Made by a program: the position numbers and the translations under genes. The notes beneath the pieces are model-generated. The model worked only from the letters and a program-made list of their open reading frames with translations. It made no database searches and was not told the DNA's origin. From NCBI GenBank assembly GCA_048320885.1, contig JBLWFJ010000001.1, positions 1,477,642-1,541,641 on the forward strand: DNA of 64,000 nt, read 5' to 3'. Below, piece by piece: positions 838 through 53,420 of this stretch (positions are counted from its first letter, which is position 1; the number at the start of each line of letters is the position of its first letter). The DNA comes from Nannocystaceae bacterium ST9 (GTDB lineage Bacteria > Myxococcota_A > Polyangia > Nannocystales > Nannocystaceae).

Positions 838-1302
838 ATGCGCCTGCAGCCTTGCCCCTCGTGTGGTCGCCATGTCCGGGTCGCCGACGGTGACTGCCCC
901 TTTTGTGGCGCGGGCCTGACCACGTCCGCGCCCGGCTGGCTCTCGATCGCCCTGTTCGGGCTCGCGTTGGTCGGCTGCGATGCCAAGCCCGAGCCCACGA
1001 AGAAGGAAGACACCAAGACCAAGGCCGACGCGCCGCAGCCCGAGCCCGCGCAGCCCGAGCCGGCCAAGCCTGAGCCCGCCCAGCCCGAGCCGCCGCCGGA
1101 GCCTTCGACCTCGACGACCACGGGCGCACCCGCCGAGGGCACGACCAGCACCACGGGCGCCGACGACGGGGCCACCACCGCGCAAGAGCCGGTGGTCGAT
1201 GACCCGCCGATGAAGCCCAAGTACGGCGCGCCGCGGCCCGACCCGCGCCCGGCCAAGAAGTACGGCGCGCCGCCCAAGCCCGACTCCGACTCGCTCGACT
1301 GA
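838..1302 (+). CDS. zinc-ribbon (CPSC...CPFC) protein with membrane anchor and Pro-rich PEPAQPEP and KYGAPxPDP repeats
   Basis: N-terminal CxxC-x14-CxxC ribbon, then a hydrophobic segment (LSIALFGLALVGC), then low-complexity Pro/Thr-rich repeats. Stop TGA overlaps the ATG of the downstream radical SAM gene (tgATGg). Confidence 0.55.
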   Translation: MRLQPCPSCGRHVRVADGDCPFCGAGLTTSAPGWLSIALFGLALVGCDAKPEPTKKEDTKTKADAPQPEPAQPEPAKPEPAQPEPPPEPSTSTTTGAPAEGTTSTTGADDGATTAQEPVVDDPPMKPKYGAPRPDPRPAKKYGAPPKPDSDSLD

Positions 1303-2576
1303 TGGCCGGCTCGCTCCCGATCGCCTCGTCGACGCCCGCGCGCCTCCGCCTGCCGCTCGCGCCCGACCTGCGGCCCCGCGATCGCGTGCGACCGCAGTAC
1401 GCGGTCTGGGAGATCACGCTGCGCTGCGACCTGGCCTGCAAGCACTGCGGCAGTCGAGCCGGGCGGGCGCGGCCCGACGAGCTGAGCACCGACGAGGCGC
1501 TCGATCTGGTCGCGCAGATGGCCGAGCTCGGCGTCGAAGAGACGACGATCATCGGCGGCGAGGCCTACCTGCGCGACGACTGGCCGACGATCGCCGCCGC
1601 GCTGACGGCCGCCGGCATCCGCTGCTCGATGACCACCGGCGGGCGAGCGCTGACGGCCGAGCGAGTCGCGGCCGCCAAGCAGGCCGGGGTCGAGACGGTC
1701 TCGGTCTCGATCGACGGGCTCGCCGACACCCACGACCACCTGCGCGCGCTCGCGGGCAGCCACGCCGCGGCCCTGCGCGCGCTCGAGCACCTGCAGGCCG
1801 CCGAGCTGCCGCGCTCGGTCAACACCCAGATGTGCGGGGTCAACCTCCGCGAGATCGAGCCGCTGCTCGAGACGCTCGCGCGCTTCGAGATCCACAGCTG
1901 GCAGGTCCAGATCACCGTGGCGATGGGCCGCGCCGCCGATCACCCCGAGCTGCTCTTGCAGCCCTGGCAGATGCTCGAGCTGATGCCGCTGGTCGCCCGC
2001 GTGCACCGGCGCTGCGAGCAGCTCGGCATTCGCCTGTGGCCGGCCAGCAACATCGGCTACTTCGGCCCCTACGAGGCCCTGCTTCGCCACGATCACCGCG
2101 ACGGCCACCAGACCGGCTGCGAGGCGGGCACGCGCACGCTCGGCATCGAGGCCAACGGCGACATCAAGGGCTGCCCCTCGCTGCCGAGCCGCGACTACGT
2201 CGGCGGCAACGTCCGCGAGCATCGCCTGCGCGAGATCTGGGAGCGGGCCGACGTGCTGCGCTTCAATCGCGAGCCGCGTGTCCACGAGCTCTGGGGTCAC
2301 TGCGGGACCTGCTACTACGCCGACACCTGCAAGTCGGGCTGCACCTGGACCGGCCACGTGCTCTTCGGTCGGCGCGGCAACAACCCCTACTGTCACCACC
2401 GCGCGCTCGAGCTGCTGCGCGCCGGTCGACGCGAGCGGATCGAGCTGGCCACGCCCGCGCCCGGGCTGCCCTTCGATCACGGCGAGTATCGCTTGGTCGA
2501 GGAAGACTGGCCGAGCGCGCTGCTCGAGCGGGCTCGCGCGGTCGCGAGCTCGGGCGAAGGTTGGATCGACGAGTGA
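1302..2576 (+). CDS. radical SAM/SPASM-domain protein (peptide-modifying maturase-like)
   Basis: CDLACKHC motif (CxxxCxxC). C-terminal Cys-rich SPASM-like region (GCEAG...CPSL...HCGTCYYADTCKSGC). Tightly coupled to upstream and downstream genes. Confidence 0.85.
   Translation: MAGSLPIASSTPARLRLPLAPDLRPRDRVRPQYAVWEITLRCDLACKHCGSRAGRARPDELSTDEALDLVAQMAELGVEETTIIGGEAYLRDDWPTIAAALTAAGIRCSMTTGGRALTAERVAAAKQAGVETVSVSIDGLADTHDHLRALAGSHAAALRALEHLQAAELPRSVNTQMCGVNLREIEPLLETLARFEIHSWQVQITVAMGRAADHPELLLQPWQMLELMPLVARVHRRCEQLGIRLWPASNIGYFGPYEALLRHDHRDGHQTGCEAGTRTLGIEANGDIKGCPSLPSRDYVGGNVREHRLREIWERADVLRFNREPRVHELWGHCGTCYYADTCKSGCTWTGHVLFGRRGNNPYCHHRALELLRAGRRERIELATPAPGLPFDHGEYRLVEEDWPSALLERARAVASSGEGWIDE
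2441..2498. repeat. 58-bp direct repeat, copy 1 (3' end of radical SAM CDS); partner at 3966..4023
   Basis: gagctggccacgcccgcgccc[g/a]ggctgcccttcgatcacggcgagtatcgcttggtcg is present twice with one mismatch. Confidence 0.8.
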
Positions 2577-2579
2577 GTC

Positions 2580-3827
2580 ATGGCCCTGCCGATCGAGCCC
2601 GACGAGTGCGAGTGGCTGATCGATCGGACGGCCGAGCTCGTCGCCGCGGTCGGCTGGCGCGGCTACGTGTCGGCGCCCCTGGTGCTGCCCGACGCGCAGA
2701 GCTTCCCCGAGCCCTGGACGGCCGACGCTCGCGCCCTGCGTCGGCTGGCCCGGCGTCTGCTCGCGTACGCCGGGCTCGGCCAGCTCGGCGTCGAGCTCGA
2801 GCTGTTCGAGGGTGAGCGCGAGCTCGAACTCGACGCCCAGGGTCGCGACCGAGTCGTCGGTCATCAAGGTGCGGCTGCGTGGTTCGCCGGCATCGTCGAT
2901 GGCGTGTGCCAGTTCGGCTGCGAGGTCGATCAACTCCGCGATCCGATCGGCGTGGTCGGGGCGATGGCCCACGAGGTCGCCCACGCGTTTCGCCGACACC
3001 ACGCGATCGAGGTCGAGGACACCGATCTGGAGGAGCGGCTGACCGACCTGACCTCCGTGTATCTCGGCTTCGGCGTGCTCACGACCAACGCCGCGCTCCG
3101 CCACCGCTCGTACGGAAACGACGACGGCCTGATGCTGGGTCACCGCTGGACTCGCAACCAGCTCGGCTACCTGCCCGCGGCCGCGATGGCGTACGCACTG
3201 GCGCTCTGGCAGCTCGCGCGTGGCGACGACGAGCACGAGGCCAAGGCGATCCGCCGCGCGCTCGAGATCAACCAAGCGGCGTGGTTCAAGACCTCGCTCG
3301 CGTCGCTGCGCAAGCGAAAAGCCTCGCTCGCGCTGCTTCGCGAGCTGCCCGCGCGCGAAACCTGGCCGAAGCGACCCGAGCTCGGCGAGCTCGCGCTCCC
3401 CGACGCGGAGGACGACGACGCGGCCGAGCCGAACGACGACGCCGAGCCGAACGCCGACGACGAGCCAGGGATCGTGTTTCGAATCCGCGGTCGCCGAGCG
3501 TGGGGCCAGGGGAACGTCGGATTGGTCGCCGCCGGCGGCGGGATCCTGGTCGCGATGATGGGCGGATCCTCGACATGGTTCGTCGCCGCGTTCGCGCTCG
3601 TCGGTGGCGCGCTCGCCTATGGCTTCGAGCCGATCGGCTACTGCTCGGACCCCGACTGCGATCGCAACATCGGCCCGAGCGACGTGGTGTGTCCGGGCTG
3701 CCGCCGCCGGATCGCCGGCGAGATCAGCCACCGCAAGCATCGGCTCGCCGCCGAGGAGGCCGTACTCGAAGGACGCCCACTGCCGGGCGCGAACCCGATG
3801 ATCAACGAGCCCCCAGGCGACGAGTGA
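2580..3827 (+). CDS. HExxH (HEVAH) putative zinc-metallopeptidase-like membrane protein with C-terminal CxxC...CxxC zinc ribbon
   Basis: AHEVAHAF motif. Two predicted TM helices near the C-terminus (GLVAAGGGILVAMMGG / FVAAFALVGGALAYGF), followed by CSDPDC...CPGCRRR. Starts 4 nt after the radical SAM stop. Confidence 0.55.
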   Translation: MALPIEPDECEWLIDRTAELVAAVGWRGYVSAPLVLPDAQSFPEPWTADARALRRLARRLLAYAGLGQLGVELELFEGERELELDAQGRDRVVGHQGAAAWFAGIVDGVCQFGCEVDQLRDPIGVVGAMAHEVAHAFRRHHAIEVEDTDLEERLTDLTSVYLGFGVLTTNAALRHRSYGNDDGLMLGHRWTRNQLGYLPAAAMAYALALWQLARGDDEHEAKAIRRALEINQAAWFKTSLASLRKRKASLALLRELPARETWPKRPELGELALPDAEDDDAAEPNDDAEPNADDEPGIVFRIRGRRAWGQGNVGLVAAGGGILVAMMGGSSTWFVAAFALVGGALAYGFEPIGYCSDPDCDRNIGPSDVVCPGCRRRIAGEISHRKHRLAAEEAVLEGRPLPGANPMINEPPGDE

Positions 3828-3837
3828 TCGGATCTCG

Positions 3838-3962
3838 TCAAACTTGCGAGACCCTTGGGAAGCGCTTGCGAAGACGAGGCCCCGCGAGCCTGGATGGCCC
3901 CCGAGCGAAGAATGAATGAGCGAGCGAACGCGAAGCGAACAGACGCGAAGCGCTTGCGAGGA
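3838..3962 (-). repeat. GC-rich interspersed repeat (REP/MITE-like family), inverted orientation
   Basis: Its reverse complement matches the 'cctcctcgcaagcgcttcgcg..ttcgcttcgcgttcgctcgctcattc' core seen at 6330-6400 and 53270-53330. Confidence 0.7.
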
Positions 3963-3965
3963 GGG

Positions 3966-4023
3966 GAGCTGGCCACGCCCGCGCCCAGGCTGCCCTTCGA
4001 TCACGGCGAGTATCGCTTGGTCG
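3966..4023. repeat. 58-bp direct repeat, copy 2 (encodes ELATPAPRLPFDHGEYRLV, a duplicate of the radical SAM C-terminus)
   Basis: Near-identical to 2441..2498. Together the copies flank the HExxH gene plus a REP-like element. Confidence 0.8.
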
Positions 4024-4096: not shown

Positions 4097-5038
4097 ATGT
4101 CGCTCGTACGCTCGAAGGTCCTCTCGCTCACGATGCTCGCCCCGCTCCTGTCGGGCTGCCCCGCCGAGGAGCCGCCGATGGAGCCGTTCAGCCTGCGCTT
4201 TGCCGCCAGCGCCGACGGACAGGAGGTCGGCTGCGGCAGCGAGATCACCGGGCTCGGGCCGATGGGGCAGCATGTCGTGCGGCCCGCGGATCTGCGCTTC
4301 TACGTCAGCAACCTGCAGTTCTTCGACGCCGCGGGCGAGCCGATCGAGCTCGAGCTCGACCAAGACGAGTTTCAGTACCGCAGCGAGGCCGGCGAGGTCG
4401 CGCTGGTCGATCTGACCGGCACCGTCGATGGCGCCTGCTCGGCCTCGGCGATCGCCTTCGCCGAGGGCACCGCTCGCACCCACACCGCGATCACCGGCAA
4501 GACCCACGTCGATCACGTGGCGCGGATCAGCTTCGAGGTCGCCGTCCCGCAGCGGCTCATGCAGGAGACGATCGCCGCGAGCACGGCCGAGGCCGCCCCC
4601 TCGCCGCTCGCCGAGCTGTACTGGTCGTGGGCGACCGGCTACCGCCACTTCGTGTTCAACTTCGAGGTCGACGCCGGCGGAGAGCTCGGCGGCGGCTACC
4701 TGCACATCGGCAGCCGCGACTGCGGAGTCGAGGGCTCGCTCGCGCTCGAGGACCGCGACGAGTGCGGGTTCATCAACAACCCGGCGGTCGAGCTCGACGG
4801 CTTCGACCTGCGCGCGAACACGGTCATGCTCGACATCCCCGCCCTGCTCGCCTCGCTCGACTTCATCTCGCCGATCTACGACCCCGAGACCTTCGAGCCG
4901 ATCGGCGAGGGTCCCGGGGTCGAGTGCCACTCGTCCCCGATGCAGCCCGACTGCGAGACGATCTTCACCAACGTCGGCCTCGACATGGCGTCCGGCAGCG
5001 CCAGCGCGACCGCCAACGCCGTGTTCTTCGGAGGCTGA
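4097..5038 (+). CDS. MbnP-like / 'metallo-mystery pair' four-Cys motif periplasmic protein
   Basis: Signal peptide with lipobox (LLSGC) and conserved Cys pairs. Immediately upstream of, and almost abutting, a di-heme CCP-like gene (stop TGA 5036-5038, next start GTG 5040). Confidence 0.55.
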   Translation: MSLVRSKVLSLTMLAPLLSGCPAEEPPMEPFSLRFAASADGQEVGCGSEITGLGPMGQHVVRPADLRFYVSNLQFFDAAGEPIELELDQDEFQYRSEAGEVALVDLTGTVDGACSASAIAFAEGTARTHTAITGKTHVDHVARISFEVAVPQRLMQETIAASTAEAAPSPLAELYWSWATGYRHFVFNFEVDAGGELGGGYLHIGSRDCGVEGSLALEDRDECGFINNPAVELDGFDLRANTVMLDIPALLASLDFISPIYDPETFEPIGEGPGVECHSSPMQPDCETIFTNVGLDMASGSASATANAVFFGG

Positions 5039-5039
5039 C

Positions 5040-6200
5040 GTGGATCGGCTCGCGTCGCTCATCGCCCTGCTCTCCACGCTCGTGGCCTGCGAGTCGCCCG
5101 AACCGGACGACCCGAGCGAGGTCGACGACGCGGCCCTCCGCGAGCTGCTCGGCGTCCCCGACCACTTCGTGACGCCGGCGATCCCGGCCGGCAACCCGCC
5201 GACGGCCGAGAAGATCGAGCTCGGCCGCCGGCTCTTCCACGACCGCCGGCTCTCGGGCAACCAGACCCAGTCGTGCGCCGACTGTCACCTGCAGGAGCTG
5301 GCGTTCAGCGACGGCCTGACGACCCCGACCGGATCGACCGGCACGCTGCTCGAGCGCAACAGCCAAGGCCTCGCCAACGTCGCGTACCTGCCCTCGCTGA
5401 CCTGGGCGAGCGACGGGCTGCTCGAGCTCGAGCAGCAGATCCACGTGCCGCTGACCGCCGACGCGCCAATCGAGCTCGGCGTGACCGACGGCATCCGCGA
5501 CGAGGTGCTCGCGCGCTTCGAGGACGACCCGGAGTACGCGGCGATGTTCGCCGCCGCGTTCCCGGACCTCGCGGGCGAGATCACGCTCGATCACGTCGTG
5601 TTCGCGCTGGCCAGCTTCTGTCGCACCTTGATCAGCGGCGCGAGCCCCTACGATCGCTTCTTGGCCGGCGACGAAGCGGCGCTGACCGAAGAGCAGCGGC
5701 TCGGCATGAGCCTGTTCAACGGCGAGCGCTTCGAGTGCTTCCACTGCCATGGCGGCATCAACTTCACCGCCGCCTACCGCGACGCGCGGCACGATCCTGC
5801 GGACCCGCGCCTGGTGTTCTTCAACAACGGCCTCTACGACGTCGACGGCGAAGGCAGCTACCCGGCCCACGATCAGGGCCTCTACGAGCTGACCTTCGAC
5901 CCCGACCACCGCGGCCTCTTTCGCCCGCCGAGCCTGCGCAACGTCGCGCTCACCGCCCCCTACATGCACGACGGCAGCATCGCGACCCTGCGCGAGGTCG
6001 TCGAGCACTACGCCGCAGGCGGCCGACTCATCACCGAAGGCCCCAACGCCGGCGACGGTCGAGTCAGCCCGCTCAAGTCGGGCCTGGTGCGCAGCTTCGA
6101 AGCGAGCGACGAAGAGATCGACGCCGTCGTCGCCTTCCTCGAAGCGCTCACCGACGAGTCGTTCGTGACCAACCCCGCGCTCGCCGACCCCTTCGAGTGA
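5040..6200 (+). CDS. di-heme cytochrome c peroxidase-family enzyme (MbnH-like, MXAN_0977-type)
   Basis: Two CxxCH motifs (CADCH, CFHCHGG) with spacing typical of the CCP/MauG fold. N-terminal signal/lipobox. Confidence 0.8.
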   Translation: MDRLASLIALLSTLVACESPEPDDPSEVDDAALRELLGVPDHFVTPAIPAGNPPTAEKIELGRRLFHDRRLSGNQTQSCADCHLQELAFSDGLTTPTGSTGTLLERNSQGLANVAYLPSLTWASDGLLELEQQIHVPLTADAPIELGVTDGIRDEVLARFEDDPEYAAMFAAAFPDLAGEITLDHVVFALASFCRTLISGASPYDRFLAGDEAALTEEQRLGMSLFNGERFECFHCHGGINFTAAYRDARHDPADPRLVFFNNGLYDVDGEGSYPAHDQGLYELTFDPDHRGLFRPPSLRNVALTAPYMHDGSIATLREVVEHYAAGGRLITEGPNAGDGRVSPLKSGLVRSFEASDEEIDAVVAFLEALTDESFVTNPALADPFE

Positions 6201-6202
6201 GG

Positions 6203-6580
6203 GGGGTCTGGTTTGATGGAGGGCGTTCCGCCGCCCTCCCCCGTGCCGAGCAAGCTCGTCACGGGTCCCCCTCCTCTGGTTTTTCTGGAGGCCCTTCCGC
6301 GGGCCTCCCCCGTGCCGGCGGAGCCGTCACGGGTCCCCCTCCTCGCAAGCGCTTCGCGCCTGTTCGCTTCGCGTTCGCTCGCTCATTCCTTTGCTCGGAG
6401 GTGAGCCAGGCATCGCATTCGCTCGCTCATTGCTTTGCTCGGAGGTGAGCCAGGCATCGAGCCTGGTCGCTTCGCGCTCGCTCATTCCTTGCTCGGAGGT
6501 GAGCCAGGCTTCGGGCTTGGTCGCTTCGCGTTCGCTCGCTCGGCGCGATCGCGTTCGCTCGCTCAGTGGAAGATCTCGTG
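6203..6580. repeat. composite GC-rich repeat block: two tandem hairpin units (ggaggSc-ttcc-gScgccctcc ...gtcacgggtccccctcctc) plus a ~40-nt unit x3 (cgctcgctcattcctttgctcggaggtgagccaggcatc)
   Basis: Direct inspection of the sequence. Shares a core with the repeats at 3838-3962, 33640-33990 and 53218-53420. Confidence 0.8.
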
Positions 6581-7678
6581 GCCGAGGCGCTCGAGTTCGG
6601 CGAGGGTGTCGGGGGGATCGACGTGGCGTGGGGCGGTCCAGATTCGCAGGCCTGGGCGGCTGGTCGCGATCGCGTCGATCGAGCGGCGGGTGCGGTGGCC
6701 GAGCTCGTGGATGCCGGCGTAGGTGGTGCACAGGCGATCGACGACGGCCCGGGCGGCCTCGCTCTCGCCGAGCTGGGCGAACACGGCTCGCTCGATTCGC
6801 TCGCGCGCCGGTGGGTCGGGCAGCTCGGCGTCGGTCCGGTTGAGCAGCACGGCGTCGATCCGCAGGCCGTAGGCGGCGAGCTGGTCGAGGAACTCGCGGG
6901 CCTCGCGAGCGGAGAAGGGTGAGGCGGTGGTCACCAGCAGCACGCCGGTCGCGGGGCTGCGCAGCAGTCGTTCGAAGTCGCCGCCGCGACGGTGGAACTC
7001 GCCGAGCACCTCGGCGAACTCGCGCAGGAAGGCGCCGAGGTCCCCGATGAAGTCGCCGCCGCCGATCTGCCGGAGCGTCTTGCCGAGCACCGAGCCGCCG
7101 AGCCCGAGGATCTTGGCGCCGACCCGGCCGGTCCCGGCCAGCAGGCGCGCGCCGGGGTTGTCGATCAGCTCGCGGACCTGCTTGGGCGCGTCGAGGAAGT
7201 CGATCGCGTTGGCGGTCGGCGGGGTGTCGAGGACGATCAGGTCGTGCTCGCCGGCGTCGTGGAGCATCTGAACGCGGGCCATCGCGGCGAACTCGAGCGC
7301 ACCCGAGAGCCGCTGGGCGGTCGCGCGATAGATCCGACTGGCGAGGATCTTGTCGGCGCTGGCCGGGTTGCTCGCGCAGGTGCGGACGATCGTGTCGAAC
7401 ACCTTGGCGCCGTCGAGCACGAGCGCGTCGAGGTGGCCGCCCTCGCGCCGGACCGGGACCAGCTCGCCGGTTCGTCCGCGCGCGTCGAGTCCGAGCGCCT
7501 GGGCGAGTCGGCGCGAGGGATCGATGGTCACGACCGCGACCTTGCGACCCTGGCTCGCGGCGTAGAGCCCGAGCGCGGCGGCGCTGGTGGTCTTGCCGAC
7601 GCCACCGGGGCCCACGCACAAGACCAGCTCGCGGCCGGGGAAGGGCAGGGAGGATCCTGTGGACGGCCTAAGGGGCAT
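6563..7678 (-). CDS. ArsA/GET3-family anion-transporting ATPase (SIMIBI P-loop)
   Basis: Deviant Walker A GPGGVGKTT. Start placed at the internal Met (MPLRP). The longer ORF reaching 7714 would overlap the divergent biotinyl-protein gene. Confidence 0.7.
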   Translation of the reverse strand: MPLRPSTGSSLPFPGRELVLCVGPGGVGKTTSAAALGLYAASQGRKVAVVTIDPSRRLAQALGLDARGRTGELVPVRREGGHLDALVLDGAKVFDTIVRTCASNPASADKILASRIYRATAQRLSGALEFAAMARVQMLHDAGEHDLIVLDTPPTANAIDFLDAPKQVRELIDNPGARLLAGTGRVGAKILGLGGSVLGKTLRQIGGGDFIGDLGAFLREFAEVLGEFHRRGGDFERLLRSPATGVLLVTTASPFSAREAREFLDQLAAYGLRIDAVLLNRTDAELPDPPARERIERAVFAQLGESEAARAVVDRLCTTYAGIHELGHRTRRSIDAIATSRPGLRIWTAPRHVDPPDTLAELERLGHEIFH

Positions 7679-7697
7679 GCAATAACCTCCCGGCGCG

Positions 7698-8252
7698 ATG
7701 GCGGCCGAATCCAACCCCAGCGGCTATCGGATCCGCGTCGGCGAGCGCGAACATCGAGTCGAGATCCTCGCTGCGAGCGAGGGCCAGCCGCTGCGCGTGC
7801 GGGTCGACGGCCACGAGTTCGAGGTCGCGAACGCGGGCGTGCACGCGCTGCGCGTGGCCCCGCAGTCCGGCGAGGATCGTCGGCAGCTCGAGGTCACGCT
7901 CGCCAGCGATGGCGGCCGCGCGAGCGAGGCCTGGCTGTCCGGCACGCGGGCCAAGCTCGCGGTCCAGACCGAGCGCGAGGCTCGGCTCGCGGCCGCGCTC
8001 GGCAAGTCCTCGGCCGGTCACGGCAGCGGCGAGCTGCTCGCCCCGATGCCCGGCCGCGTGGTCAAGGTCGGCATCGCGCTCGGCGATCGCGTCGAGCGAG
8101 GCGCACCGATCATGATCGTCGAGGCCATGAAGATGGAGAACGAGCTGCAGGCCCCGATCAGCGGGATCGTGCGCAGCATCGCCGTGCAGGCCGGCGCCGC
8201 GGTCGATGCCAACCAGGTGCTCTGCGTGATCGAGCCCGAGCCGGCCGCTTGA
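7698..8252 (+). CDS. biotin/lipoyl attachment domain protein (BCCP-like)
   Basis: C-terminal biotinyl-domain consensus: IMIVEAMKMENELQAP...VLCVIEP. Confidence 0.65.
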   Translation: MAAESNPSGYRIRVGEREHRVEILAASEGQPLRVRVDGHEFEVANAGVHALRVAPQSGEDRRQLEVTLASDGGRASEAWLSGTRAKLAVQTEREARLAAALGKSSAGHGSGELLAPMPGRVVKVGIALGDRVERGAPIMIVEAMKMENELQAPISGIVRSIAVQAGAAVDANQVLCVIEPEPAA

Positions 8253-8259
8253 GCGCCGC

Positions 8260-9228
8260 TCAACCATCGGCCACGCTCCCGGGCTCGCGCCCACCCTCGA
8301 TCGCGGCGAGCAGCTCGGCCACGCGATCGAGCCCGTCGACACCCCAGGGCCACCAGGGCACGGTCAGCAGATCGGACCCGTCGCTCGGGTGGCGGCCGAG
8401 CCAGTCGGCGACGACCTGGGCTTGATCGTCGCCGCGCTGCCCGACCCGCGCGACCGCGGCGAACATGCGCGCGAGCGATCCGTCCTCGTCGAGCTCGCTC
8501 GCGGGCGGCTCGAGCGAGACGAACTCGCGCGGCCACAGCTTGTTGACCACGCGCGCGCCCACGCTCAGGCCGACCTCGACGCGCAGCGCCTCGGCCAGCT
8601 CGGCGAGCTCGGTCAGCGGCCAGATCTCGGGCAGCCCGACCAGCACCGCCTGACTGATCGCCGCGTCGCCGAGCGCCGCGCTGATCGCCGCCGCCTCGCG
8701 AGCGAGCGGACCTTCGGCCACGGTCTCGACGATCGCCCGCGGCACGCCGAGCACCAGCCGCAGGTGACCCGAGGCCGGACCGTCGAACACGACGACGTCG
8801 TGGCTGCGCGCACGCACGGCCTCGTGCCAGACCTTGCCGAGCACCGCGAAGTCGTCGAACCCGGGGATCGCCCGCAGCAGCCGCCGCACGACCTTGTTTC
8901 CAAACACCGCGTGCGAGAGCCGGTGGCTGTGGGTGACCAGCGCGCCGTACTCCTCGGCGCAGGTGGCCGGGACCAGCCGCTGGATCGAGAGACCGGGGGC
9001 GACCTCGACCGGCACGTCGGGCAAGCGCTCGCCGCCGAGCATCCACGCCAATCGATCGTCGTGGCCCGTGGTCGCGATCAGCACGCGTCGGCCTCGAGCC
9101 GCCAGCGCCATCCCGAGCAGCGCCGCCACGGTGGTTCGTCCGACCCCGCCCTTGCCGCTGACGATCAGCAAGCGACGAGCGCCGAGCTGCTCGAAGAGCT
9201 CGGCAGGCGGGCGTGGCTGCTCCGGCAC
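8260..9228 (-). CDS. ArsA-family ATPase (second copy)
   Basis: Walker A GKGGVGRTT. Same family as 6563..7678. Confidence 0.7.
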   Translation of the reverse strand: MPEQPRPPAELFEQLGARRLLIVSGKGGVGRTTVAALLGMALAARGRRVLIATTGHDDRLAWMLGGERLPDVPVEVAPGLSIQRLVPATCAEEYGALVTHSHRLSHAVFGNKVVRRLLRAIPGFDDFAVLGKVWHEAVRARSHDVVVFDGPASGHLRLVLGVPRAIVETVAEGPLAREAAAISAALGDAAISQAVLVGLPEIWPLTELAELAEALRVEVGLSVGARVVNKLWPREFVSLEPPASELDEDGSLARMFAAVARVGQRGDDQAQVVADWLGRHPSDGSDLLTVPWWPWGVDGLDRVAELLAAIEGGREPGSVADG

Positions 9229-53217: not shown

Positions 53218-53420
53218 TAGGAGGCCCTTCCGCGGGCCTCCCCCGTCCCGGCGAAGCCGTGACGGGACCCCCTCCTCGCAAGCGCTTTGCGCCTGTTCGC
53301 TTCGCCTTCGCTCGCTCATGTCGCTCGGAGGCCGTCCAGACATCCCGGGACGGCGCGTCGCGGGTACCTCCTCGCAAGCGCTGCGCGCCCGTCGGCTCGT
53401 GTCAGGGTGCGCGGGCGCGC
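53218..53420. repeat. GC-rich interspersed repeat (same family as 6203-6580)
   Basis: The motif ggaggcccttccgcgggcctcccccgtcccg...gtgacgggaccccctcctcgcaagcgctttgcgcctgttcgcttcgccttcgctcgctca, followed by a partial second copy. Confidence 0.75.

Follow-up and report, generated by a model that had tools for sequence, protein, structure and literature searches.

Tyramine spliceases of the PlpX type excise tyramine at X-Tyr-Gly sites (PMC11414181, PMC11002830, PMC9811515). The diagnostic mass loss of splicing is 135.06 Da, C8H9NO (PMC11626197), and ketoamides are the protease-inhibiting pharmacophore in the spliceotides tested (PMC11626197, PMC9811515). In type I spliceotide systems the enzyme (PlpX or PcpX; TIGR04103) is accompanied by PlpY and by a precursor, PlpA, with a Nif11 or NHLP leader. 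Systems that lack the Y protein, termed binary, have also been documented (PMC11414181); RhaX/RhaA and RasX/RcsX of Rheinheimera consist of an enzyme and a precursor, and the precursor leader, a helix-forming peptide, is thought to dock on the enzyme (PMC11414181, PMC11626197). Here we analysed a 64,000-nt stretch of DNA (the window; positions are counted from its start) from Nannocystaceae bacterium ST9 (Myxococcota, Polyangia). Two adjacent genes in it, gene 1 (g1) and a gene for a radical S-adenosylmethionine (rSAM) enzyme with a SPASM domain, probably form a two-component (binary) tyramine-splicease system, in which KYG sites of a lipoprotein precursor would be converted to alpha-ketoamides. 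A third gene (g3) follows directly. The G+C content of the region is about 71%, and the features of the locus are:

838-1302, + strand: g1, open reading frame (ORF) of 154 aa, predicted splicease substrate with a zinc-ribbon leader, a lipoprotein-type signal, a disordered Pro/Thr/acidic linker and two KYGAP sites
853-906, + strand: zinc ribbon of g1, CPSCGRHVRVADGDCPFC; C6, C9, R11, H12, C20, F22 and C23 are invariant in the family
937-978, + strand: hydrophobic segment of g1, ending in a lipobox-like L-V-G-C47
1219-1227, + strand: site 1 of g1, predicted splice site, K128-Y129-G130
1258-1266, + strand: site 2 of g1, predicted splice site, K141-Y142-G143; Y142 and G143 are invariant in the family
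1302-2576, + strand: rSAM/SPASM enzyme gene, ORF of 424 aa with Radical_SAM and SPASM domains
1425-1448, + strand: CX3CX2C radical SAM cluster motif of the enzyme (C42, C46, C49)
2118-2393, + strand: SPASM region of the enzyme with seven Cys (C273, C291, C334, C337, C343, C347, C364)
2580-3827, + strand: g3, 415 aa, membrane-anchored M48/minigluzincin-like zinc metallopeptidase with a C-terminal zinc ribbon

The original prediction, made from the sequence of this locus alone, had read the three genes as a translationally coupled operon and a candidate system for peptide modification. The three same-strand ORFs are present exactly where it placed them, and the close spacing is confirmed: the stop codon of g1 (TGA, 1300-1302) and the ATG of the rSAM gene (1302-1304) overlap by one base, and 3 nt separate the rSAM stop codon from the ATG of g3. 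No terminator-like sites were seen within the three-gene block. The two CxxC pairs (at residues 6 and 20), the hydrophobic stretch and the Pro-rich region ascribed to g1 (19% Pro) are found, and the repeat counted as three copies of PEPAQPEP is in fact PEPAQPEP twice and PEPAKPEP once. The domain assignment of the enzyme also held, as the Radical_SAM and SPASM domains of Pfam score 83 and 33 bits, respectively, and the CX3CX2C motif and the seven SPASM cysteines are present. In g3, which is 100% identical to ACNOYE_06275, the expected HEVAH motif, two predicted transmembrane (TM) helices and Cys4 ribbon are all there.

The enzyme resembles the PlpX family most closely. Its top NCBIfam model is TIGR04103 ('nif11-class peptide radical SAM maturase 3'; 483.5 bits, E 4e-145, nearly full length), followed by TIGR03913 ('GDL motif peptide-associated maturase'; 417 bits), and the remaining rSAM/SPASM families give at most 160 bits. 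PqqE (83 bits, cutoff 381), MftC (104, cutoff 265), AhbD (154, cutoff 500) and NirJ2 (136, cutoff 500) all stay below their cutoffs, and the sulfatase maturase model is not among the best 25 NCBIfam families. These scores do not mark the enzyme as a standard sulfatase or cofactor maturase, a possibility that had been raised earlier. As a comparison enzyme, standing in for a validated splicease, we used a TIGR04103 member from a plasmid of Nostoc sp. C057, found by tblastn against plasmids. It is 51% identical to the window enzyme (194/377, E 1e-143), passes TIGR04103 with 853 bits and scores 414 bits with TIGR03913. A Nif11 precursor is encoded upstream of it, with a leader that closely resembles the leader of PlpA3, for which splicing is experimentally established (PlpA3 sequence in supplementary information Table S3 of PMC10533398) and with the core RGSIALYGLPPELF (...IALYGLPPELF); a 71-aa ORF in the PlpY position overlaps the stop codon of the enzyme gene. 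With these genes, the Nostoc locus has the classic make-up of a type I spliceotide cluster.

An Azospirillum enzyme of the TIGR03913 family is about 49% identical to the window enzyme. On plasmid pAB510c of Azospirillum sp. B510 (L097), DUF1843 'GDL' peptides are encoded upstream of the TIGR03913 maturase (2287-2499 and 2578-2742), and both contain Tyr-Gly (YG), in RPYGPA and AAYGDVP. Because these adjacent peptides carry YG, the TIGR03913 family may likewise act on YG sites. Because the three clades score similarly against each other's models, we infer that the window rSAM, TIGR04103 and TIGR03913 clades are sister groups, on scores and not on a tree. The comparisons indicate that the window enzyme belongs to a myxobacterial clade that is sister to the PlpX-type tyramine spliceases and lies outside the TIGR04103 equivalog. 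In the PDB it has no close relative; the best match is SkfB (E 1.8e-18). The original prediction recognised no named rSAM system in this architecture, and this has to be revised: the enzyme is a PlpX-type relative, given 483.5 bits for TIGR04103 against about 160 bits for the families next in line, 51% identity to the Nostoc member and a partner with X-Tyr-Gly. Relatives of the enzyme carry names such as 'heme biosynthesis protein' (Plesiocystis) and 'antilisterial bacteriocin...' in databases.

The enzyme gene is paired with a g1-like gene. A scan of metagenomes with the window rSAM yielded 80 loci with 55-81% identity. In 83 related rSAM loci we searched for partners with a strict zinc-ribbon pattern, in which Tyr and Gly were not used, and detected a zinc-ribbon partner ORF in 72; many of the loci have two to four tandem g1 paralogs, and 85 partner ORFs are complete. 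All but one of these (84/85) share the strand of the rSAM gene, and they lie either upstream or downstream of it. Several of the partnerless loci have a degenerate ribbon or lie on contigs that break off too early to show a partner. Apart from the ribbon partners, no family of neighbours is shared by more than 5 of the 47 rSAM loci of at least 5 kb. The pairing of g1 and rSAM is far beyond chance. It is also found in named genera: the enzyme is 81% identical to that of Enhygromyxa, 72% to that of Plesiocystis and 66% to that of Byssovorax, and a g1-like gene adjoins the rSAM gene in every one of them. Its place is upstream in Enhygromyxa and Plesiocystis (the two Nannocystaceae genomes); in Byssovorax it is downstream and overlaps the rSAM gene.

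g3 was found in none of the 80 metagenomic loci, and g3 and rSAM are on different contigs in Enhygromyxa and Plesiocystis. Besides the window, the order g1-rSAM-g3 occurs only in two metagenome contigs (L008 and L009), which hold the same g3 relative (60% identity) and show a 4-nt overlap. Because g3 is absent from 80/80 loci while the ribbon partner is present in 72/83, g1 and rSAM are the conserved unit and g3 is outside it. Of the operon proposed originally, the g1-rSAM pair stands and g3 falls away; a failure of the three genes to co-occur, named at that time as evidence against the operon, is seen for g3 and not for the pair. In a few loci the neighbour of the enzyme is of another kind. 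A 172-aa Cys-rich lipoprotein follows the rSAM homolog (57% identical) in L058 (4725-5243), and the L059 locus is similar. L030 and L080 encode ribbon proteins with a Cys-rich C-terminal part that end in CYGAPPAR(L/F)(D/E)R.

The g1 family has a common anatomy. The N-terminal ribbon has the consensus CPxCxRHV...CPFCG in alignments, and about 36 residues beyond it a basic and then hydrophobic stretch leads to a lipobox-like L/A-x-G/A-C. Cys47 is invariant in 26 aligned sequences and conserved to at least 90% in 30. In g1 itself, a ribbon of about 30 aa stands ahead of the lipobox-type L-V-G-C47, which is assigned from the pattern only; a crude pattern rule of the same kind, not a trained predictor, finds a lipobox-like Cys behind a hydrophobic run in 70 of 88 partner proteins. 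A variable, disordered linker follows, which is rich in G, A, P, D, S and T and has no further Cys, and the C-terminal region repeats the motif X-Y-G-A/G-P-P/A. The partner proteins are 150-250 aa long and have 2-6 sites. g1 matches no Pfam or NCBIfam family, including Nif11, NHLP and DUF1843. A profile of the family matches 2,522 representatives at 50% clustering (E <= 1e-3); among its best 135 matches of at most 300 aa, 130 have the ribbon at the start, and Gly comes next after 227 of 298 Tyr.

Tyr in these proteins is used almost exclusively before Gly. In the 85 complete partners, 225 of 266 Tyr precede Gly, at a Gly frequency of 0.143 (binomial p ~1e-144); no partner lacks YG, and 76 of them have two or more. 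All YG motifs (190/190) are located after the lipobox Cys. The consensus is Phi/K-Y-G-A-P-P/A, in which various residues (L, V, K, F, A, P, I or M) stand ahead of Tyr. g1 has only two Tyr, each inside a KYGAP motif (at residues 128 and 141), and Y142, G143 and P146 are invariant in the family alignment. The consensus is close to natural and engineered splice tags such as PIRPLYGLPI (PMC10533398). The g1 homolog of L008 contains three tandem 78-nt repeats (L008 5470-5703, 81-90% identical), each encoding EKYGAPP (...DPRPAEKYGAPPLPD...). Because each repeat brings one such motif, the predicted splice sites appear to multiply by tandem duplication. In L017 (2949-3488) and L019 (1710-2881) the YG comes directly after the lipobox Cys (LGLAACYGVP), and the predicted splice site would be at the extreme N-terminus of the mature lipoprotein. 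The proteins P0321, P0345, P0369, P0381 and P0393, a subset of the matches to the g1 profile, have a ribbon and a lipobox with repeated D/A-Y-A-G-P in place of Y-G, and some of them have an extra folded C-terminal domain.

PlpX-type enzymes cut at X-Tyr-Gly and the Tyr residues of the partner almost always precede Gly, and for this reason we read the pair as a splicease and its substrate. The original prediction of a peptide-modifying, RiPP-like system (RiPP, a peptide made on the ribosome and modified after translation) is supported in that a peptide- or protein-modifying rSAM-SPASM system is present, and its suggestion that gene 1 could be the substrate gains from the pairing and the X-Tyr-Gly motif. 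What we infer about the chemistry, about the ribbon as a leader and about export, lipidation and inhibitor function is as follows. g1 would be made in the cytoplasm, where its N-terminal zinc ribbon would serve as a docking leader, replacing the Nif11 leader and PlpY, or the leader helix of the binary systems. The enzyme would abstract hydrogen at the Tyr of the K-Y-G-A-P motifs near the C-terminus of g1. A tyramine equivalent (C8H9NO, -135.07 Da per site) would be excised and the backbone rejoined, leaving an alpha-keto-beta-amino (ketoamide) residue derived from Lys. The loss of 2 Da by a crosslink, which had been expected earlier, gives way to this value on the basis of homology (PMC11626197). 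Modification in the cytoplasm would precede export by the Sec pathway; the hydrophobic stretch and the lipobox Cys would direct export and lipidation, and the leader with its ribbon would be cut off by signal peptidase II. What is left would be a disordered protein, anchored in the membrane, that displays ketoamide warheads. Ketoamide warheads of characterised spliceotides inhibit serine and cysteine proteases, and a Lys-derived ketoamide would suit trypsin-like enzymes, as peptidyl ketoamide inhibitors in general suggest. A wider reading, which we put forward tentatively and hold to be possible but doubtful, is that RiPP logic has been grafted on the lipoprotein pathway throughout the Polyangia. 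A zinc-ribbon leader within an extended signal peptide would recruit the splicease, several X-Tyr-Gly sites would become ketoamides, signal peptidase II would act as the leader peptidase, and the result would be a protease inhibitor with several warheads, held by a lipid anchor on the envelope of a predatory bacterium.

How does the pair compare with the described systems? Type I spliceotide enzymes have the same rSAM and SPASM architecture, and their adjacent precursors have X-Tyr-Gly followed by a small residue and Pro (LYGLPP in Nostoc, KYGAPP in g1). The differences are that the window enzyme stays at 483.5 bits where the TIGR04103 cutoff is 725, that no small PlpY-like protein recurs beside the rSAM genes of its clade, and that g1-type precursors have no Nif11 or NHLP leader but a ribbon, a lipoprotein-type signal and a disordered region with 2-6 sites. 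Because binary types without a Y protein exist (PMC11414181), the missing PlpY and Nif11/NHLP leader are compatible with a splicease. The Rheinheimera systems share the layout of enzyme plus precursor and the X-Tyr-Gly motif with the g1-rSAM pair, and the docking proposed for the g1 ribbon is like that of their leader; the N-terminus of g1 is, however, a Cys4 ribbon with a membrane/lipobox segment and not a helix-forming peptide, and the two are likened by description, not by sequence. The GDL maturases of TIGR03913 with their DUF1843 peptides are alike in the identity of about 49%, the 417 bits and the YG in the adjacent small proteins, but the window enzyme is below their cutoff of 591.75 and g1 is no DUF1843/GDL peptide. 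Searches for literature on TIGR04103 and TIGR03913 returned nothing, including no experimental description of the GDL family, and no paper linking spliceases to these myxobacteria was found in the accessible literature. In the accessible papers, described splicease precursors differ from the g1 class with its ribbon, lipoprotein-type signal and multiple sites in a disordered region. Mining of genomes for YG-rich neighbours of PlpX-like rSAM-SPASM enzymes has yielded 27 validated pairs, with 939 predicted systems in 189 genera (PMC10849128, PMC10533398). The g1-rSAM clade may already be among these 939 systems, and this tempers the importance of the finding (PMC10533398, PMC10849128).

Several points weigh against a splicease. 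The enzyme is under both curated cutoffs (483.5 bits against 725 for TIGR04103, 417 against 591.75 for TIGR03913), and with such scores orthology to PlpX is not established. Enzymes of the rSAM-SPASM type can switch chemistry at about 50% identity, and a search of the accessible literature found no biochemical description of this clade. YG alone is no guarantee of modification, as the DYG site of RcsA is unspliced (PMC11626197). Some ribbon-lipobox proteins have DYAGP in place of YG, and L058 and L059, with at least about 680 nt on both sides, carry a Cys-rich lipoprotein beside the rSAM gene with neither ribbon nor YG. The topology is also demanding: if a cytoplasmic Fe-S enzyme acts on an exported protein, the substrate has to be modified before it is translocated, signal peptides are not typically preceded by a folded zinc ribbon, and the lipobox-like sequence might instead end an uncleaved membrane anchor.

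g3 encodes a membrane metallopeptidase with the following features:

2970-3047, + strand: catalytic motifs of g3, HEVAH (131-135) and E152-R-L-T-D156 (ExxxD)
3516-3701, + strand: predicted TM helices 313-327 and 332-348 of g3, and Cys4 ribbon (C355, C360, C371, C374)

H131, E132, H135, E151, E152 and D156 are invariant in 25 homologs. The fold is most like proabylysin (8.5), projannalysin (7.7), selecase (7.5), an M48 peptidase and BepA (6.9 each), HtpX (6.3) and ZMPSTE24 (5.9). With HExxH, the Glu ligand of ExxxD and the matching fold, g3 is an M48/minigluzincin-like gluzincin metallopeptidase. It differs from M48, minigluzincin and SprT-like gluzincins in a helical region of its own at the N-terminus and, at the C-terminus, in two TM helices and the Cys4 ribbon. 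No Pfam or NCBIfam model matches it and no sequence relative is in the PDB; one homolog is named 'M48 family metalloprotease' in its source. Because two TM helices lie between them, the catalytic domain and the Cys4 ribbon should be on the same side of the membrane, presumably the cytoplasm. A search for g3 homologs gave 243 matches, which include Enhygromyxa, Plesiocystis, Polyangiales and Thermoanaerobaculia. The homolog stands alone in Enhygromyxa salina and follows ftsQ-ftsA in Plesiocystis pacifica, and three relatives from metagenomes or metagenome-assembled genomes (47-56% identity) follow a PP2C phosphatase gene or other genes. In L001-L006 and L093-L095, g3 has no rSAM neighbour, and among the matches listed at least four distant loci (Acidobacteriota and other phyla) have no rSAM gene in their flanks. 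From this distribution, g3 appears to have joined g1-rSAM by translational coupling in this sub-lineage only. A role in processing g1 is possible, with adjacency as the one point in its favour.

That the three genes might after all be a dedicated RiPP operon, with g3 as the leader peptidase or as a second substrate of the enzyme, is quite unlikely. The tight coupling, with a 3-nt gap in the window and a 4-nt overlap in L008/L009, the metallopeptidase fold with intact HExxH and ExxxD, and a catalytic domain predicted to face the cytoplasm, on the same side as the g1 ribbon, would fit such an operon, but it does not accord with 0/80 metagenomic rSAM loci, with the separate contigs in Enhygromyxa and Plesiocystis, or with g3 homologs in contexts as unrelated as those after ftsQ-ftsA, after a PP2C phosphatase gene and in Acidobacteriota. 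The g3 family also evolves much faster than the enzyme (49% against 81% identity to Enhygromyxa). A very improbable reading is that the enzyme is of the cofactor or haem type and that g1 is a mere conserved membrane neighbour, for example a periplasm-spanning linker like TonB or GltJ. The name 'heme biosynthesis protein' of the Plesiocystis enzyme, 136-154 bits to the NirJ2 and AhbD models, a weak match of the Pro-rich part of g1 to GltJ and the high conservation of the enzyme across genera all point that way. Yet the haem-family scores are one third of the PlpX-family score and far under their cutoffs, no genes for haem d1 or alternative haem were near the rSAM gene in the loci examined, and the near-exclusive use of Tyr-Gly in the partner would be left unexplained.

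The same enzyme and substrate could also be joined by another chemistry, in which the Tyr of YG(A)P is modified and not excised, for example through a C-C or C-O crosslink centred on Tyr or through another change of side chain or backbone. SPASM enzymes are chemically diverse, the window enzyme lies below the equivalog cutoffs of TIGR04103 and TIGR03913, and the conserved motif, YG-A/G-P-P, is longer than XYG and could include a crosslink partner. We nevertheless consider this rather unlikely: the PlpX family and its sister family are the nearest relatives by a wide margin, YG is likewise present in the precursors of these relatives (Nostoc has LYGLPP, the GDL peptides RPYGPA and AAYGDVP), and the residue before Tyr is variable and the Gly after it invariant, as in spliceases. 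Three-residue cyclophane (triceptide) chemistry on Y-G-A was set aside, as the nearest families are PlpX-type and the invariant position is the Gly and not the third residue.

The surroundings of the three genes were also inspected. They include the following features:

2442-2499 and 3966-4023, + strand: 58-nt direct repeat, 57/58 identical (0 expected by chance)
4097-5038: MbnP family copper-binding protein (TIGR04052, 190 bits, passes)
about 5055-6200: MbnH family di-haem enzyme (TIGR04039, 475 bits, passes)

The 58-nt repeat comes from the 3' part of the rSAM gene, where it encodes ELATPAPGLPFDHGEYRLV; its second copy is in the spacer behind g3, and the rSAM tail and g3 lie between the two copies. 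Recombination between them would delete g3 and alter the C-terminus of the enzyme. The repeat as a mark of g3 insertion was rejected, since L008 has g3 in the same place without it. A dispersed repeat with the core AATGAGCGAGCGAACGCGAAGCGAAC occurs at 3895-3985, 6317-6391, 6366-6545 and 53295-53320: one copy is located behind g3, MbnH is followed by an inverted copy (75 nt, 85% complementary) and then by 3-5 tandem units of 44-54 nt, and a further copy is near 53.3 kb. The inverted pair brackets the MbnP and MbnH genes, which are located between g3 and ArsA-like genes. At this position L008 has two unrelated small ORFs, and the M24/ArsA/biotinyl block that follows is inverted. Because of these differences, local insertion and inversion around MbnP/MbnH are suggested. 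The ArsA-like genes (6563-9228) encode two ATPases of the ArsA/Get3 fold; one is like mycobacterial BagB (233 bits) and the other like BagA (81 bits), and neither score reaches the cutoff. Between them is a gene for a 184-aa biotinyl/lipoyl carrier-domain protein (7698-8252), and the trio is kept in L008. Upstream of g1, after a gap of 27 nt, the ORF at 43-810 encodes a lipoprotein-like protein (LLLGC) that matches no Pfam or NCBIfam family and has no homolog in any related locus examined.

Natural routes to beta-amino acids and ketoamides in ribosomal products are few, and tyramine splicing is one of them; protein engineering already makes use of it. The work of Scott et al. 2022 (Chem 8:2659) reportedly mentions 'peptides and proteins' in its title, and Plesiocystis and Enhygromyxa would probably have come up with the method that it used. 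The present pair adds a recognition module, the Cys4 ribbon, and a compact K/Phi-YGAPP tag, and it corrects the annotation of these enzymes as 'heme biosynthesis protein' or 'antilisterial bacteriocin...'. The family is large, with the 2,522 representatives that match the g1 profile. The native products of spliceotide systems remain elusive, according to a 2022 review (PMC9811515). The conserved substrate described here is lipoprotein-like rather than a secreted peptide, and this points to a cellular function that is genetically testable in culturable myxobacteria. If the tentative RiPP-lipoprotein reading is true, it would give a first hint that tyramine splicing has a native function in the cell, and the warhead of the Nannocystaceae would be derived from Lys and hence aimed at trypsin-like proteases.

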